Of a stretch of 64,000 bases of DNA, positions 51,970 to 56,401 are shown in pieces. The notes beneath the pieces were generated by a model that worked only from the letters and a program-made list of their open reading frames with translations, was not told the DNA's origin and did not search any database. Both the position numbers and the translations under genes were made by a program. Where the stretch lies: sequence record OZ470804.1; one strand, 5' to 3'. The first letter of the stretch is position 1, and each line of letters opens with the position of its first letter. This DNA comes from a phage.

Positions 51970-52388
51970 TAACGAATAACCTGTGAGACTTGAATTGCTT
52001 CAGTTACTGATAAGTCACCCACTTTCTCTTCTTTGATAAAAGTGAAGGTGAGTTCAACAGGCTCTTGCTCTTCTTGCTCAACCGGAACACCGTTAAGCTC
52101 ATCAAAGATTGATTGAGTTGTCCAGTCTTCTCCACCATCTGGATAGTGGATGGCATAAAGAGGGAACTCTAAATTATACCAAGCAAAAACAGGGCAACCA
52201 TCTGCATCATCTCGGCATCTGTGGAGATATGTGTTTGTACCTTCAAAATGCAAATGGAGATTACCATTCTTCTCAAAAAGAAGAGCATCTTGCAGGTCTA
52301 GTTCCTCATTTTCACTGTAACGGCTGACATCGACTTTAACGTGAATATGACTGTTATTATTCATAAAAACCTCTCTCTGCTTGTTCAA
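51969..52388 (-). CDS. hypothetical protein
   Basis: 139 aa ORF. Confidence 0.5.
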   Translation of the reverse strand: MNKQREVFMNNNSHIHVKVDVSRYSENEELDLQDALLFEKNGNLHLHFEGTNTYLHRCRDDADGCPVFAWYNLEFPLYAIHYPDGGEDWTTQSIFDELNGVPVEQEEQEPVELTFTFIKEEKVGDLSVTEAIQVSQVIR

Positions 52389-52755
52389 TTTTTTCTCTTA
52401 AAATTTCGCAATGTTGTAAATGGTAGTTAGCTTCTTGTTCATGTGTTGCTAACTGCCTTTCAAGAACAGTTTTATAATAACTTGCAAGTTGCTCTTTTGT
52501 CAACGGGTGTTCTGAAATAATATCAAGTCCACTTTCACCAAGAGGGTTGAATTGTCCATGTTCATTGACATTGTAAGTCTCAAACTTGAACAGGCCATTG
52601 TTCACAGACTCAATAGGTGACAGCTCAACAAGCTCTACAGTAAACCGTGTATACACCTTGTCGCCTCTTGAAACCACATTGTTTCCAACAATTCGTACAA
52701 GAGAACCATTACGAGTGTACTTAAAAGTCCCAAAGTCACTAGCCCAAAGCTTCAT
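52357..52755 (-). CDS. hypothetical protein
   Basis: 132 aa ORF. Confidence 0.5.
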   Translation of the reverse strand: MKLWASDFGTFKYTRNGSLVRIVGNNVVSRGDKVYTRFTVELVELSPIESVNNGLFKFETYNVNEHGQFNPLGESGLDIISEHPLTKEQLASYYKTVLERQLATHEQEANYHLQHCEILREKIEQAERGFYE

Positions 52756-52769
52756 AGTTTTCTCCTTAG

Positions 52770-52796
52770 AAAATAAAAAAGGCTCCCGAAGGAGCC
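52770..52796 (-). terminator. intrinsic terminator (minus strand)
   Basis: GGCTCC-CGAA-GGAGCC hairpin with plus-strand A-run. Confidence 0.65.
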
Positions 52797-52806
52797 TATG
52801 AAGATA

Positions 52807-53271
52807 TTACTTTGGATATACACTGTCAAGATAAATGTCAGCTTCCATTCTACGTCTGTTTTTCAGACCGTTTGAAGTGACCTTCTTACCTTTGACTGTA
52901 ACCTTGTTCCACCACTGCATAGCTTCTGCACAACCTACCTTATTACCAGCGTTGTGGCGCTTGATAAATGTAGAATCCTGCATAGCTGTGATACCGATGT
53001 TGTATGTTTCACTTACAAGTGCATCGAACTCATTCTGAGAGGTTGGAACCTTGATAGCTTTATTCACTGCTGCAACGAACTTCTCAACATCTGCAAGAAG
53101 ATACTGTTCAGCTTGTTCAGCAGTAATTTTCATACCCATCTTAACAGGTTTTCCGTCAATACGGATTGTACCATACCCGATTGTTGGGATTCCGGCAGAG
53201 TCTTCGTAAGCCTCTAACTTCAGACCTTCAAAGAACTTAATAGCTTCTAAACCTTTTCTTGAGAGTTGCAT
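52807..53271 (-). CDS. endolysin, GH24 lysozyme
   Basis: catalytic E..D..T spacing in FEGLKLEAYEDSAGIPTIGYGT. Confidence 0.85.
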   Translation of the reverse strand: MQLSRKGLEAIKFFEGLKLEAYEDSAGIPTIGYGTIRIDGKPVKMGMKITAEQAEQYLLADVEKFVAAVNKAIKVPTSQNEFDALVSETYNIGITAMQDSTFIKRHNAGNKVGCAEAMQWWNKVTVKGKKVTSNGLKNRRRMEADIYLDSVYPK

Positions 53272-54404
53272 TATGCCTCCCCTGCTGGGTTAACTGTAAC
53301 TGTTGCCGCATTAGATGTCACAGAGCCACCTGCACCAGTAACTACACAAGTGTAGCTTCCTGCATCAGCAGTGGTTGCACCTTCTTTGGTGTAAGTTGCA
53401 GCAGTTGCGTCTGGGATGACTTCCTCACCCTTCTTCCACTGATAACCTGTTGCACCAGTAGCCACAACATTCAGCGTTAAGGTCTCACCTTCAGTGATTT
53501 CTTGATTGGCTGGCTGTTGAGTGATAACTGGTAAAGCATTTACCGTGATTGTTGCAGGGTTAGAAGTAACAGAACCTCCAGCACCTGTTACAACGCAAGT
53601 ATATGAACCTGCATCTGCTGGCAGTGCACCAGACTTGCTATAGGTGGCGTTTGTAGCTGAAGGGATGTCAGAACCATCTTTCTTCCACTGGTAACCTGTT
53701 GCGCCTGTTGCAGTCACTGCTAGACTGATGTTTCCACCTTCATTAATGGTCTGGCTAGAAGGTTGCTGTGTAATCACTGGCAAGGCGTTCACAGTCACTG
53801 TTGCTGCATCTGAGGTGACACTTGTCCCACCCTCTCCAGATACAACACAAGTGTATGAACCAGCGTCAGAAGGTGCTACGGATTGTTTTGTGTAAGTTGC
53901 AGAAGTGGCACTAGGGATGTCCTCACCATCCTTCTTCCACTGATATCCAGTGGCGTTAGTTGCTAGAACACTTAGAGTAAGTGTGCCACCCTCATTGACT
54001 GTTTGACCTGTTGGTTGCTGAGTAATTGCTGGTGGCTTAATAGCATCCTTCAACTTAGCATTCAACATTGAGAACGGTTTAACTCTTGCCAACCATTCAC
54101 AGTAAATTGTGTCAACATCTTTACCGTTGATAATTGCATACTGTAAATCCATGAAGAAATCAGCAGTTCTCATCTGTGCACCAACGCTGTAAAGAAGTTC
54201 ATCACTAAATGGAACTTTGTAGTCTGGTTTGTAGTCAAACTTCGCAACCTCTGCAATATCAGCTTCAGGCCAATATGAGCTATAGGTGAGCGGTAAAATA
54301 GCTTCTTGATATGTTCTAAAATCATATCTCTTACCAGCCTTTACATTTGCAACGAAACCCTTTACAAATTCTTTGAAGTCTGGGTAAGTCTTTGCTTTAA
54401 TCAT
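53271..54404 (-). CDS. Ig-like repeat protein (N-terminal domain + three tandem Ig-like domains)
   Basis: three ~85 aa repeats each with ATGYQWKKDG and GSYTCVV; N-terminal ~125 aa homologous to next ORF. Confidence 0.65.
   Translation of the reverse strand: MIKAKTYPDFKEFVKGFVANVKAGKRYDFRTYQEAILPLTYSSYWPEADIAEVAKFDYKPDYKVPFSDELLYSVGAQMRTADFFMDLQYAIINGKDVDTIYCEWLARVKPFSMLNAKLKDAIKPPAITQQPTGQTVNEGGTLTLSVLATNATGYQWKKDGEDIPSATSATYTKQSVAPSDAGSYTCVVSGEGGTSVTSDAATVTVNALPVITQQPSSQTINEGGNISLAVTATGATGYQWKKDGSDIPSATNATYSKSGALPADAGSYTCVVTGAGGSVTSNPATITVNALPVITQQPANQEITEGETLTLNVVATGATGYQWKKGEEVIPDATAATYTKEGATTADAGSYTCVVTGAGGSVTSNAATVTVNPAGEA
53285..54045 (-). repeat. three tandem ~255 bp coding repeats
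   Basis: direct DNA repeats encoding the Ig-like units. Confidence 0.65.
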
Positions 54405-54772
54405 TTCTTTTTAGCCTCTAAACGTGCGTTTAATCTAAAATAGCCTTTATGTTGTGGAGACACATCACTAACAACAATGCCTTCAACTTTATAACCCTTA
54501 CCAATTACATACTGGATATCCATAAGAAACGTACCAAGCCCAACAATGTGGAACATTGGGTATAGCAACTTATCTGAATCTGGGAGTTTAATTTCTGGGT
54601 TATAGGTGGGTTGTTCGGCAGTTGGTGTAATATCCTCTTCAGGCCATTTACTCATTCTCCATGTTAAAGGTGTTGGGATAACATCGTTAAGATTGTATCT
54701 TTCACCATTCTCCACGGAGTGGATATAGGATTGTAGGAAGCAATAAAAGTCTTTTGCACTCTTAGCCTTCAT
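54401..54772 (-). CDS. paralog of the N-terminal domain of the Ig-like protein
   Basis: shared KDFxxFLQSY..ERY..LLY..F.MD.QY.I..G pattern, no Ig repeats. Confidence 0.55.
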   Translation of the reverse strand: MKAKSAKDFYCFLQSYIHSVENGERYNLNDVIPTPLTWRMSKWPEEDITPTAEQPTYNPEIKLPDSDKLLYPMFHIVGLGTFLMDIQYVIGKGYKVEGIVVSDVSPQHKGYFRLNARLEAKKK

Positions 54773-54785
54773 TAAATATCCTTAT

Positions 54786-54812
54786 AAACAGATAAAGGGG
54801 CATCAGCCCCTG
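54786..54812 (-). terminator. intrinsic terminator (minus strand)
   Basis: AGGGGC-ATCA-GCCCCT hairpin with plus-strand A-rich run. Confidence 0.45.
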
Positions 54813-54819
54813 TTTATAC

Positions 54820-55410
54820 TTAAGCTTTGGTCTTAAGTAGGTTCTTAAGTTTTTTGAGATTCATGCTCTCGTCAAACTTAAAACCAAATCCATTGACATA
54901 ATCAATGAACTCGGATTTCTTACTAAGTGATAGTGCGTAACTCATATCAAAGTTATTACTTGTTTCTGCGTCTGGACTAGAGTTCACATCAAATGAAATT
55001 TCTGTAGGCTCTTGCTTGCTACTTCTCATATTATCAATCAATAGACAGGTGTAGTTCGCTGGATAGAAGTTAACACTCCCATCAACATACCCATACTTAT
55101 TATTGTGAATAAGGCTGGAAAATACCTTAAGAAATGTTTCTGAGTCGTGGCATACAAGTTTGAATTGACTGCATTCCCCAAGAGCCACTAAAGAGTAAGG
55201 GCTTTCACTATCAATGTCATAGTTTGGATTTGATGTTGTAACCGTCACACGCATCAAGTTATTAGCAATAGTCTTCTGCTTGAAAGAATTTGGGACATAG
55301 TGAAGACCTCTATCACACTGATTAACTAGCTCTTTAAGTAGGTCGTTTGCATATGGTGAATTAATTGATACAGAGCCATCACTATTATAATTAAAACTTA
55401 CTGTTAACAT
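54820..55410 (-). CDS. hypothetical protein
   Basis: 196 aa ORF. Confidence 0.5.
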   Translation of the reverse strand: MLTVSFNYNSDGSVSINSPYANDLLKELVNQCDRGLHYVPNSFKQKTIANNLMRVTVTTSNPNYDIDSESPYSLVALGECSQFKLVCHDSETFLKVFSSLIHNNKYGYVDGSVNFYPANYTCLLIDNMRSSKQEPTEISFDVNSSPDAETSNNFDMSYALSLSKKSEFIDYVNGFGFKFDESMNLKKLKNLLKTKA

Positions 55411-55637
55411 TTTTCAGTTCTCCTGCGATTTATGATTTTGCTGCAATAGAGAAACGAAGTAAACTCACTGGAAGAAACCATTAAGTGTTGTTCACTAGAT
55501 TGAGCCATTGCCCTGAAATACATTCCAGTCAAAGCATCGTAGTGACTATTCTTTCCAATTGAGGTTATATAGCCATGACTCTTTGCAGTTTTATATAAAT
55601 CTATAATATCTGCGATTTCTAATTGGGAACTACACAT
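55404..55637 (-). CDS. hypothetical protein
   Basis: 77 aa ORF. Confidence 0.4.
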   Translation of the reverse strand: MCSSQLEIADIIDLYKTAKSHGYITSIGKNSHYDALTGMYFRAMAQSSEQHLMVSSSEFTSFLYCSKIINRRRTEKC

Positions 55638-55879
55638 AGATAATCCTCTTGTCTTCTGTAATTTTGAAAGAACAGGTACAGACCAATTTCAGAGGATGAA
55701 TAGTAGAGTAACTCTACCCTTTTTGATTCCTTACAGTGATTGGTATTTTTACCTTTCTTCGGGTTGTTTGATTTTCTCATTAAGTCTCCTTTGTAGAACA
55801 AGGCAGACCTACAGCTTTAAGTAAGATGGTACAGTAATCCATACAACAAGTCAAGAACTATTGCAAGTTAAAAAAGTTG

Positions 55880-55920
55880 TTGACAAAGTACTTGACAAGG
55901 TGTAGCCTTATAAATACTTA
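55880..55920 (+). promoter_or_regulatory. putative promoter with tandem TTGACA boxes
   Basis: AAAAAGTTGTTGACAAAGTACTTGACAAGGTG; -10 element not resolved. Confidence 0.35.
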
Positions 55921-56029
55921 GAAGATAACTTAAAAGGTTCCTCTAAAAAGGCTATTTAAACAGATATCTTTCTGGATATCTATCTTTTATCTTAAAAGCC
56001 TTTTAAGAGGTCTTATAAGAGGCATACCA

Positions 56030-56401
56030 ATGAAAAACAGAACAAACAAAGGCCAGTTTAAAAAAGGCCAGTCTGGAAACCCATCTGGAAGACCAAAAGG
56101 CTCTCGTAACAAAAGTTCACTCGTAAAAGCTCAACTGACCATTGATAATTCTGCTGAGTTTGCTGCAAAGTTGTTTGAAGCGATTGTTACAAGGGACGCT
56201 GCTAAGCTTGCAGAGTTTGGGTTAAACACAGACGACGTAACCATCAAGAGCATGATTGAGGTCGGTAAAACTATCATGACCCACTCAGCAGGTGAGATGA
56301 AAGCAATTGCAGCAGACACTAAGAAGACTCCTGATAATGGTGGTCAGTCTCAGACAGATAACAAACCAACGTTCTCTGCTGTAGCGACTCTCAAAAAATA
56401 A
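56030..56401 (+). CDS. hypothetical protein with GQSGNPSGRPKG motif
   Basis: 123 aa ORF; motif is common in phage proteins of unknown function. Confidence 0.5.
   Translation: MKNRTNKGQFKKGQSGNPSGRPKGSRNKSSLVKAQLTIDNSAEFAAKLFEAIVTRDAAKLAEFGLNTDDVTIKSMIEVGKTIMTHSAGEMKAIAADTKKTPDNGGQSQTDNKPTFSAVATLKK

Follow-up and report, generated by a model that had tools for sequence, protein, structure and literature searches.

The 377-residue protein encoded at 53271–54404 of the window (the whole 64,000-nucleotide stretch of phage DNA analysed here, sequence record OZ470804.1) is, as judged from alignments, an orthologue of Hex-Dec/gp20 of Felix O1-type phages, a protein already known and described in 2025. 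The overall interpretation that we favour, to which we assign a probability of roughly 85%, is that this protein is a Hex-Dec capsid decoration, that its Ig-like domains vary in number through crossover, that its gene belongs to a cassette with the endolysin and that the adjoining gene is a duplicate of its N-terminal domain for capsid binding (CapBD) alone. This conserved CapBD-only paralog is the sole new element; it is mentioned in neither of the two cryo-EM papers, on phage Sf14 (PMC11821841) and phage Bas63 (PMC12609058).

Locus and gene cassette

The source genus of the window is Felixounavirus, with 97% nucleotide identity to Escherichia phage vB_EcoM-LTH02. Two open reading frames on the minus strand, at 53271–54404 (377 residues) and 54401–54772 (123 residues), have the coordinates given to them in an earlier sequence-only reading of this DNA, which also placed them next to an endolysin. 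The neighbour, at 52807–53271 on the same strand, is indeed a GH24 phage lysozyme (PF00959, 7e-41). The cassette order of paralog, Hex-Dec and endolysin is that of a Felix O1-type myophage and is common to Felix O1, VpaE1, vB_EcoM_AYO145A (AYO145A), Bas63 and a distant 87-kb metagenomic phage.

A hairpin scan and inspection of the sequence located a putative boundary at each end of the cassette, both on the minus strand. Upstream, a GC-rich terminator-like hairpin (AGGGGC-TGAT-GCCCCT, 54796–54811) followed by a T-rich tail separates a gene for 196 residues from the cassette; downstream, an intrinsic terminator (AGGCTCC-TTCG-GGAGCCT and then TTTTTATTTT, 52780–52797) marks the cassette end. The AYO145A record annotates a rho-independent terminator at the position equivalent to the hairpin, and the position equivalent to the downstream terminator is annotated there as well. 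A sequence scan of the stretch from the upstream hairpin to the paralog found no sigma70-like promoter. The paralog gene has a Shine–Dalgarno sequence, AAGGA, 7 nt ahead of its ATG, and its stop codon shares an ATGA overlap with the Hex-Dec start. The Shine–Dalgarno sequence of the endolysin (GGGGAGG) is embedded in the last Hex-Dec codons, and the Hex-Dec stop and endolysin start overlap by 1 nt (TAATG).

The sequence-only reading had considered this an odd place for a surface protein, among non-structural genes. The oddity is real and was noted by the Bas63 authors, who describe the Hex-Dec gene as lying more than 10 kb away from the structural module (PMC12609058); in the window, a six-frame translation gave no match to the N-terminal peptide of the Felix O1 major capsid protein. 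The three-gene cassette offers an explanation. The overlapping frames (ATGA and TAATG) and the hairpin and terminator that bracket them suggest that Hex-Dec and the endolysin are co-expressed, and we propose that the Hex-Dec gene lies outside the structural module for this reason.

Identification as a capsid decoration protein

Comparison of the 377-residue protein (39.5 kDa, pI 4.7) with the PDB using phmmer matched Bas63 Hex-Dec (9ncf_S, E = 1.5e-279) and Sf14 gp20 (9c2d_S, E = 4.7e-171), in both cases from residue 1. Bas63 (Escherichia phage JohannRWettstein; PDB entry 9NCF, chain S; Sci Adv 2025, PMC12609058) belongs to the same genus as the window phage, and its Hex-Dec has an anchor domain about 95% identical to that of the window protein, but it carries four Ig domains (A-B-C-D, 460 residues) where the window protein has three (A-B-D, without C). 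The Shigella phage Sf14 gp20 (PDB entries 9C2D and 9C3A, chain S; Commun Biol 2025, PMC11821841) consists of an N-terminal CapBD and three Ig domains in 372 residues and is homologous to the window protein over the full length, with an end-to-end alignment at E = 5e-171; Sf14 is a Mooglevirus, a genus other than that of the window, and its Ig domains are more diverged.

The division into an N-terminal domain of about 125 residues and three Ig-like repeats, as first read from the sequence, is borne out. Alignment to 9ncf_S and 9c2d_S places the CapBD at residues 1–124 (54033–54404), followed by Ig domains at residues 125–208, 209–291 and 292–372; all coordinates refer to the minus strand. The Ig region is matched by the Pfam families Ig_3 (4e-32), Ig_2 (2e-29) and I-set (1e-24), in three stretches apiece. 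When typed against the four-Ig form in loci L008 and L017, the domains are of type A (53781–54032, 94% identical to domain 1), type B (53532–53780, 95% identical to domain 2) and type D (53274–53531, 92% identical to domain 4), the last running to residue 377 with the C-terminal tail NPAGEA; type C is missing.

Both Bas63 Hex-Dec and Sf14 gp20 have been modelled by cryo-EM in the centres of capsid hexamers, where the protein binds as a monomer to 60 quasi-3-fold hexamers (PMC12609058, PMC11821841). In Sf14 gp20, which occupies quasi-3-fold hexamers only, Arg79 and Arg107 contact Asp221 of the major capsid protein (PMC11821841). The two arginines are also kept in Bas63 Hex-Dec and in the window protein (AQMR79TAD and LAR107VKPF), and all 26 distinct CapBD sequences in the comparison have both. 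Virion proteomics, one of the checks named in the sequence-only reading, finds the orthologues present: mass spectrometry of purified virions revealed Sf14 gp20 (PMC11821841) and Felix O1 gp36 (PMC3185647), the latter the product of ORF36, which adjoins the lysin ORF35. The early guess of a Hoc-like surface decoration was right because the protein is, by its alignments, orthologous to Bas63 Hex-Dec and Sf14 gp20.

Most GenBank records, and phrog_3995, label this protein as a tail protein. These labels trace to the Felix O1 proteomics paper, in which gp36 was named 'major tail protein' (PMC3185647). Against them stand the two cryo-EM structures that place the protein in capsid hexamer centres, and the Bas63 paper says outright that 'tail protein' is a mistaken annotation (PMC12609058). 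We therefore give virtually no credence to a tail identity for the 377-residue product, which the solved capsid structures have already refuted.

Monomeric head decoration has been shown in orthologues of 95% and about 75% identity, and the window protein would act in the same way. Its CapBD would plug the centre of each pentamer-proximal (quasi-3-fold) hexamer, 60 in all on a T=9 capsid, held there by salt bridges that Arg79 and Arg107 form with Asp221 in three subunits of the major capsid protein, and the acidic Ig domains A, B and D (pI 4.2) would extend away from the head in a flexible fibre. The analogy with T4 Hoc suggests that this fibre may adhere weakly to glycans of bacteria or mucosa, or may control particle aggregation; its adhesive role in the Ounavirinae is so far a proposal in both structure papers.

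Comparison with other decoration proteins

Like Hex-Dec, T4 Hoc sits at hexamer centres as a monomer, has a small capsid-binding domain and a string of Ig domains that forms an acidic fibre, and varies in Ig number among relatives. The capsid-binding domain of Hoc, however, is C-terminal and of different topology (PMC12609058), whereas the Hex-Dec anchor is N-terminal. Hoc-like PHROGs match the Ig region of the window protein only (phrog_2973 on residues 120–290), as do all of the Pfam matches. The window Hex-Dec works like Hoc, yet lies outside the Hoc family. Hoc is found on all T4 hexamers, in contrast to the 60 of 80 occupied by Hex-Dec, and we know of no anchor-only paralog described for T4.

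The Ig domain of T5 pb10 (PDB entries 5LXK and 8ZVI) also matches the 377-residue protein (E = 3e-12, phmmer against the PDB). Like Hex-Dec, pb10 has its capsid-binding domain at the N terminus and an Ig region at the C terminus and binds at hexamer centres; unlike Hex-Dec, it has a single Ig domain and an unrelated capsid-binding domain, and it decorates a siphovirus T=13 head.

Variation in Ig-domain number

The sequence-only reading described the three repeats as near-identical and supposed that they could expand or contract by recombination. The premise fails: pairwise identities between the repeats in the window are 68–71% for protein and 62–67% for DNA, and no exact DNA match in register exceeds 16 nt. 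A DNA repeat search returned pieces of 34–41 nt at 71–76% identity and nothing longer, and Tandem Repeats Finder reported no repeats in 52000–56000 because the Ig repeats are too diverged. Of the motifs cited for the repeats, GSYTCVV is present three times and GYQWKK likewise, but the longer GYQWKKDG occurs in two copies only, the third reading GYQWKKGE.

The supposition itself fares better, as repeat number is not invariant. Among 28 sequences (27 related loci and the window) there are one, two, three or four Ig domains, with protein lengths of 210/211 (four sequences), 294/298 (12), 377 (ten) and 461 residues (two). This distribution excludes the results of a CapBD homologue search, which gave almost only 210-residue clusters through a bias of its word index and candidate limit. 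The domain compositions found are ABCD, ABD (the window), AD, A-(B/D), AB-(C/D) and three different A/D chimeras. We also observed that phages designated 'VpaE1_ev' have three Ig domains compared with two in VpaE1.

Chimeric domains occur in six relatives. Their junctions fall within conserved motif blocks, and the informative sites show a clean switch between the two parental types. The three A/D junctions correspond to the three in-register identical A/D blocks that are longest in the window (16, 13 and 11 nt). The typing draws on the 28 sequences with few reference domains per type, and does not polarize loss with respect to gain. Read at the sequence level, the chimeric junctions support unequal crossover as the source of the change in Ig number. 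Crossover would take place in register between diverged repeats, at short blocks encoding YQWKK, ATYT(K) and (S)YTCV.

A conserved CapBD-only paralog

The gene at 54401–54772 (minus strand), which belongs to phrog_4463 (unknown function), had been read as encoding the N-terminal domain only, and this is confirmed. By BLASTP its 123-residue product is 36% identical to residues 2–119 of Hex-Dec (E = 1e-17), and it matches phrog_3995 with E = 3.6e-16. An AF2 model built from a 24-sequence alignment that includes distant family members reached a pLDDT of 79.7 and a pTM of 0.80, replacing a poor earlier model from 16 sequences (pLDDT 58.6). With Foldseek, the scores of which also draw on amino-acid similarity, the only significant PDB matches to this model were the CapBDs of 9c2d_S (TM 0.72/0.73) and 9ncf_S (TM 0.71/0.72); the next match had E = 0.25. 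In sequence and in predicted fold, the 123-residue protein is a true paralog of the whole CapBD. A 141-residue open reading frame upstream of a distant CapBD-Ig protein (P0103, locus L041) was considered as a further paralog and rejected, its likeness being limited to the first 39 or so residues with an hhalign probability of 17%.

Could the gene be a relic, without function, that a partial tandem duplication left behind? The single CapBD gene of older lineages would suit such an origin, as would pseudogenes: of 253 sequenced relatives, about 20 (~8%) have the paralog as a pseudogene, and in phage mio and locus L018 it has lost its start codon and about 230 nt. The intact copies argue otherwise. 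Their length is steady at 122–124 residues across Felixounavirus, Mooglevirus and Suspvirus-type phages, Bas63 carries a copy 94% identical to that in the window, and a distant metagenomic phage encodes one at 45% identity. The dN/dS ratio of the paralog, over 26 sequences with a median dS of 0.72, is 0.12, against values of 0.05 (CapBD), 0.08 (lysin) and 0.09 (upstream gene); on this sequence measure the paralog is under purifying selection. Together with the good Shine–Dalgarno sequence, these observations make a functionless remnant very improbable. The paralog would instead stem from an old duplication of the CapBD alone, its fold kept whole and maintained by selection.

Possible functions of the paralog

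At the position equivalent to Arg79 the paralog has an invariant glycine (VGLG), and at that of Arg107 a glutamine, replaced by histidine or arginine in a few sequences. As both anchoring arginines are replaced, the paralog cannot be classified as a capsid binder of the Hex-Dec type. It is absent from the list of Felix O1 virion proteins (PMC3185647) and is not among the VpaE1 virion proteins named in the main text of that paper; for a 14-kDa protein, absence from mass-spectrometry lists is weak negative evidence.

These two features, the missing arginines and the absence from the Felix O1 list and from the main-text VpaE1 proteins, would fit a role that has nothing to do with the capsid, such as a host-directed or lysis-related one, in which only ancestry and operon are shared with Hex-Dec. 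The position in an endolysin cassette and the combination of 36% identity to the CapBD with conservation within its own family point the same way. Yet the paralog has no transmembrane segment, signal sequence or Pfam match, and the holin candidates of Felix O1 were placed elsewhere by its authors (PMC3185647); we rate a holin or lysis role low because of the lack of a transmembrane segment. The hydrophobic-core positions of the CapBD are kept, and this is more in keeping with a conserved scaffold for binding than with a new activity. On balance we regard a non-capsid function as rather unlikely.

The paralog might alternatively be a third stable component of the capsid, either as a bare plug in the 20 facet-centre (true 3-fold) hexamers that are free of Hex-Dec or as a competitor of Hex-Dec that sets fibre density. 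The whole CapBD fold is retained in the AF2 model and its Foldseek matches, the most conserved parts of the paralog (residues 68–97 and 103–121) are homologous to the capsid-contacting region, and its gene is translationally coupled to that of Hex-Dec. Asp221 is displaced in the 3-fold hexamers of Sf14 (PMC11821841), which could suit a ligand without the two arginines. A bare CapBD would hardly protrude, and icosahedral averaging would smear out a monomer lying on a 3-fold axis. However, the other hexamers were without density in both cryo-EM studies (PMC12609058, PMC11821841), of phages which surely (Bas63) or very probably (Sf14) encode the paralog. This, the pseudogenes in relatives and the virion proteins listed for Felix O1 and, in the main text, for VpaE1 make a stable third component distinctly unlikely. 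The related proposal of a functional second hexamer-centre ligand, which would fill the 20 facet-centre hexamers or act in maturation on the site and density of the Ig fibres, we likewise consider improbable.

In our view, the reading to lean towards, at slightly under an even chance, is that the paralog still targets the hexamer centre or Hex-Dec, but does so weakly or briefly while the head matures, and is lost from purified virions. This role is an inference.

Implications

The Hex-Dec part of this locus is largely ordinary and already described, and the proper label for the 377-residue protein is Hoc-like capsid decoration protein, not 'tail protein'. Crossovers in identical blocks of 11–16 nt provide a concrete mechanism for the variation between one and four domains, which both structure papers left unexplained. 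This mechanism and the paralog may be of use to phage structural biologists and to those who work with Hoc-like display proteins. Capsid binding by the paralog, if it occurs, would be relevant to the restriction of Hex-Dec to 60 of the 80 hexamers. Were it a second hexamer-centre ligand, the T=9 heads of the Ounavirinae would have a three-component decoration in which an anchor-only paralog regulates a display protein.

Identity of the Ig-repeat protein

ORF calls place the 377-residue Ig-repeat protein at 53271–54404 and the 123-residue gene upstream of it at 54401–54772, both on the minus strand, as the sequence-only reading had it. The layout proposed there, an N-terminal domain of about 125 residues followed by three Ig-like repeats, was also verified: Pfam detects three Ig domains (Ig_3, 4e-32; Ig_2; I-set; three stretches each), bounded at residues 125–208, 209–291 and 292–372, with three copies apiece of the motifs GYQWKK and GSYTCVV. 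Searching the PDB by sequence returned two near-full-length matches: chain S of 9NCF (E = 1.5e-279), which is the Bas63 'Immunoglobulin-like domain protein', and chain S of 9C2D/9C3A from phage Sf14 (E = 4.7e-171). These are Hex-Dec of Bas63 (PMC12609058) and gp20 of Sf14 (PMC11821841), a monomeric, Hoc-like decoration of the T=9 head (PMC12609058, PMC11821841). The earlier suggestion of a Hoc-like decoration was thus correct and is already published.

The N-terminal ~120 residues of Hex-Dec/gp20 form the capsid-binding domain (CapBD), which sits at the centre of the pentamer-adjacent (facet-edge, quasi-3-fold) hexamers and is absent from the facet-centre hexamers; the structures do not resolve the Ig domains, which are flexible (PMC12609058, PMC11821841). 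In Sf14 gp20, Arg79 and Arg107 form salt bridges with Asp221 in three subunits of the major capsid protein (PMC11821841). Alignment to the solved chains indicates that both arginines are retained in the window's Hex-Dec, whose CapBD differs from that of Bas63 at about six of 124 positions. Mass spectrometry has detected Sf14 gp20 (PMC11821841) and Felix O1 gp36 (PMC3185647) in virions; gp36 is ORF36, flanked in the Felix O1 record by lysin ORF35 and by ORF37. The head-decoration mechanism of Hex-Dec is therefore established through the structures of its orthologues. The protein is acidic (pI 4.7), its Ig part more so (pI 4.2). An adhesive or aggregation role of the Ig part has been proposed by analogy with T4 Hoc (PMC12609058, PMC11821841), and it is by the same analogy that we infer a possible role of Hex-Dec in adhesion.

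The 2 kb region containing the paralog, Hex-Dec and endolysin genes shares 97% identity with Escherichia phage vB_EcoM-LTH02 and has matches in 249 phage records, nearly all Felixounavirus and related Ounavirinae with Escherichia, Salmonella, Shigella and Citrobacter as hosts. These records call the Hex-Dec product 'tail protein' or 'hypothetical protein', and PHROGs calls it 'tail protein' (phrog_3995); for the smaller gene the labels are 'hypothetical protein' and 'unknown function' (phrog_4463), respectively. The tail-protein annotation is refuted, and is called wrong in PMC12609058. The feature noticed in the sequence is real and its interpretation essentially right, but Hex-Dec itself is a decoration protein already described in a well-sampled phage genus, and its novelty is low.

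Variation in Ig-domain number

The three repeats had been described as near-identical, which is not the case: they share 68–71% identity as protein and 62–67% as DNA, their longest exact in-register DNA match is 16 nt, and Tandem Repeats Finder reported no repeats over 52000–56000. Variation from one to four Ig domains has been reported previously, without a mechanism (PMC12609058, PMC11821841). Among the 28 sequences typed here (IMG/VR loci with a complete gene, 28 having been fetched, plus phage mio and the window), four have one Ig domain (210/211 residues), 12 have two (294/298), ten have three (377) and two have four (461). Typed against the four domains (A–B–C–D) of a 4-Ig form, the window's Hex-Dec is A–B–D, with identities of 94, 95 and 92%, respectively; A–D is a common 2-Ig architecture. 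Type C, which is 70–74% identical to the other types, is an old, diverged domain and not a recent duplicate. Seven architectures occur in the 28 genomes, some amid flanking genes that are 94–99% identical to those of the window, which implies that Ig number has changed in repeated, independent events.

Six loci carry chimeric Ig domains: L002 (phage mio) and L019 have a B/D chimera, L011 a mosaic of C and D, and three 1-Ig forms, L016, L018 and L021, an A/D chimera. In every B/D and A/D chimera the informative nucleotide sites show one clean switch of parental type. The junction lies at a different place in each of the three A/D chimeras: in the block encoding YQWKK, in that encoding ATYT(K) and in that encoding (S)YTCV. 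When domains A and D of the window gene are compared in register, their three longest identical runs are precisely these blocks: TATCAGTGGAAGAAGG (16 nt), CTGCAACTTACAC (13 nt) and TACACTTGTGT (11 nt). The pattern carries the signature that in-register unequal crossover at short homologies would leave. The chimeric junctions thus support the idea that repeat number changes by recombination, despite DNA repeats that are only about 65% identical.

The Hex-Dec gene of VpaE1 (KM657822, 2169–3053) encodes a 294-residue, 2-Ig protein, and those of VpaE1_ev035 (LR699048, 712–1848; 378 residues) and VpaE1_ev78 (LR597663, 772–1905; 377 residues) encode 3-Ig proteins. If the VpaE1_ev phages are laboratory derivatives, a change of domain number relative to VpaE1 would have been directly observed.

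Gene organization

The paralog, Hex-Dec and endolysin (52807–53271; 154 residues; GH24 phage lysozyme, PF00959, E = 7e-41) ORFs abut on the minus strand. The paralog stop and Hex-Dec start overlap as ATGA and the Hex-Dec stop and lysin start as TAATG; the lysin Shine–Dalgarno sequence, GGGGAGG, lies within the final Hex-Dec codons, and that of the paralog is AAGGA. A strong terminator (52797–52780, minus strand) lies 3' of the lysin gene, and the paralog is separated from the upstream gene, which encodes a 196-residue protein, by a GC-rich hairpin (54811–54796, minus strand) whose tail is T-rich. No sigma70-like promoter was found in the 48 nt gap ahead of the paralog (54773–54819, minus strand), between the terminator-like hairpin and the paralog start; the hairpin is followed by TTTATAAGGATATTTAATG, and read-through and a phage-specific late promoter are candidate routes of transcription. 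The same gene order occurs in AYO145A, VpaE1, Felix O1 and Bas63, and in a distant 87 kb metagenomic phage (122-residue paralog, 298-residue 2-Ig Hex-Dec, lysozyme). The Hex-Dec gene is more than 10 kb away from the structural module (PMC12609058); this head-protein gene lies among non-structural genes because it is co-expressed with the endolysin, presumably late.

The 196-residue protein encoded upstream of these genes (54820–55410, minus strand; phrog_4034, unknown function) has a homologue next to the sole CapBD gene of a distant phage (L040, homologue at 248–865). Proteins of 183–185 residues in the distant metagenomic phages L033 (3444–4001) and L038 (2441–2992) are like it in position and size, and that of L033 has a faint Pfam match to Phage_Inh_N. 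The hoc and inh genes of T4 are adjacent, and the arrangement seen here is reminiscent of that pair. Divergent genes further upstream encode a DUF5681 protein (56030–56401, plus strand) and a 471-residue DUF2828/DUF7788 protein (56484–57899, plus strand; phrog_850 'RNA-binding protein', vWFA in relatives). In relatives they lie just before a tRNA gene cluster. In L033 and L038 the pair is likewise conserved beside the CapBD gene; in L036 only the DUF5681 gene was seen.

The bare CapBD paralog

The smaller gene had been read as a paralog of the N-terminal domain, and it is 36% identical to Hex-Dec over residues 2–119 (E = 1e-17). It is mentioned neither in the two cryo-EM papers (PMC12609058, PMC11821841) nor in the wider literature searched. 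Clusters of 122–124 residues sharing 66–98% identity span Felixounavirus, Mooglevirus and relatives, with a dN/dS of 0.12 (26 sequences, median dS 0.72); the same ratio is 0.05 in the CapBD, 0.08 in the lysin gene and 0.09 in the gene upstream. These comparisons indicate a real, maintained gene; a functionless remnant is contradicted by the dN/dS and is highly improbable.

An AlphaFold2 model that included distant family members (pLDDT 79.7, pTM 0.80) matched only the two solved CapBDs in the whole PDB (TM 0.71–0.73; next E 0.25), which is evidence that the paralog has the whole CapBD fold. The position of Arg79 is an invariant Gly of a VGLG motif, kept even in a 45%-identical distant homologue, and that of Arg107 is Gln (His/Arg in a few sequences). 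The surroundings of these positions are nevertheless the most conserved segment, which suggests a constrained interface of different chemistry. A function that has no capsid connection is somewhat unlikely.

The paralog is not in the Felix O1 virion protein list (PMC3185647), nor does the VpaE1 authors' comparison place it among the virion proteins of that phage. Bas63 encodes an intact paralog, 94% identical to that of the window, and the remaining hexamers of the Bas63 capsid map are without density (PMC12609058); that the paralog stably plugs the 20 facet-centre hexamers, or competes so as to set fibre density, seems doubtful indeed. Our tentative preference, at a probability of about 0.45, is that the paralog would touch the hexamer centre or Hex-Dec weakly or transiently during head maturation and then be absent from purified virions. 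Whatever weight these four readings leave falls to other possibilities.

The best paralog match is below 60% identity in 20 of 253 phage records, and at least five of these (the ones listed, at about 34–36%) match only in the Hex-Dec gene; the paralog is dispensable in nature. It is a pseudogene in mio (2807–2997) and L018 (2809–3000), with the start codon lost, small indels and a ~230 nt internal deletion, the final ~45 nt with the Hex-Dec ribosome-binding site being kept. The Hex-Dec genes of both are also shortened and chimeric (two Ig domains in mio, one in L018).

Breadth and origin of the CapBD family

A profile of CapBD and paralog sequences found only 12 representatives among 1.84 billion representative proteins. 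In the distant members the anchor is fused to different modules: a Pfam-supported Big_2-type domain (P0101; L040, 869–1489), domains like Big_2 by eye with no Pfam hit recorded (P0102, and at the C-terminus of P0105; L038, 3001–3618), a single Ig domain (P0103) and a Lys-rich disordered tail (P0104; L033, 4001–4462). Partial synteny of the 196-residue protein, CapBD protein and lysozyme is kept in two distant lineages: in L033 the CapBD gene is immediately upstream of lysozyme, and in L040 it is immediately downstream of the 196-residue-protein homologue (28% identity, E = 4e-22) and followed by a 62-residue ORF at the contig edge. The contigs of L038 and L039 (P0105) stop just past the CapBD gene. 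The distant loci L033, L038, L039 and L040 have one CapBD gene each. The bare paralog therefore arose by partial tandem duplication on the line that gave rise to Felixounavirus, Mooglevirus and their nearer relatives, and has been kept since.

What this analysis adds is the mapping of crossover junctions within the Hex-Dec Ig repeats and the recognition of a conserved neighbour of unknown function as an anchor-only paralog without the known capsid contacts. From its sequence relatives, the rare CapBD looks like a modular anchor for hexamer centres, with interchangeable display domains.
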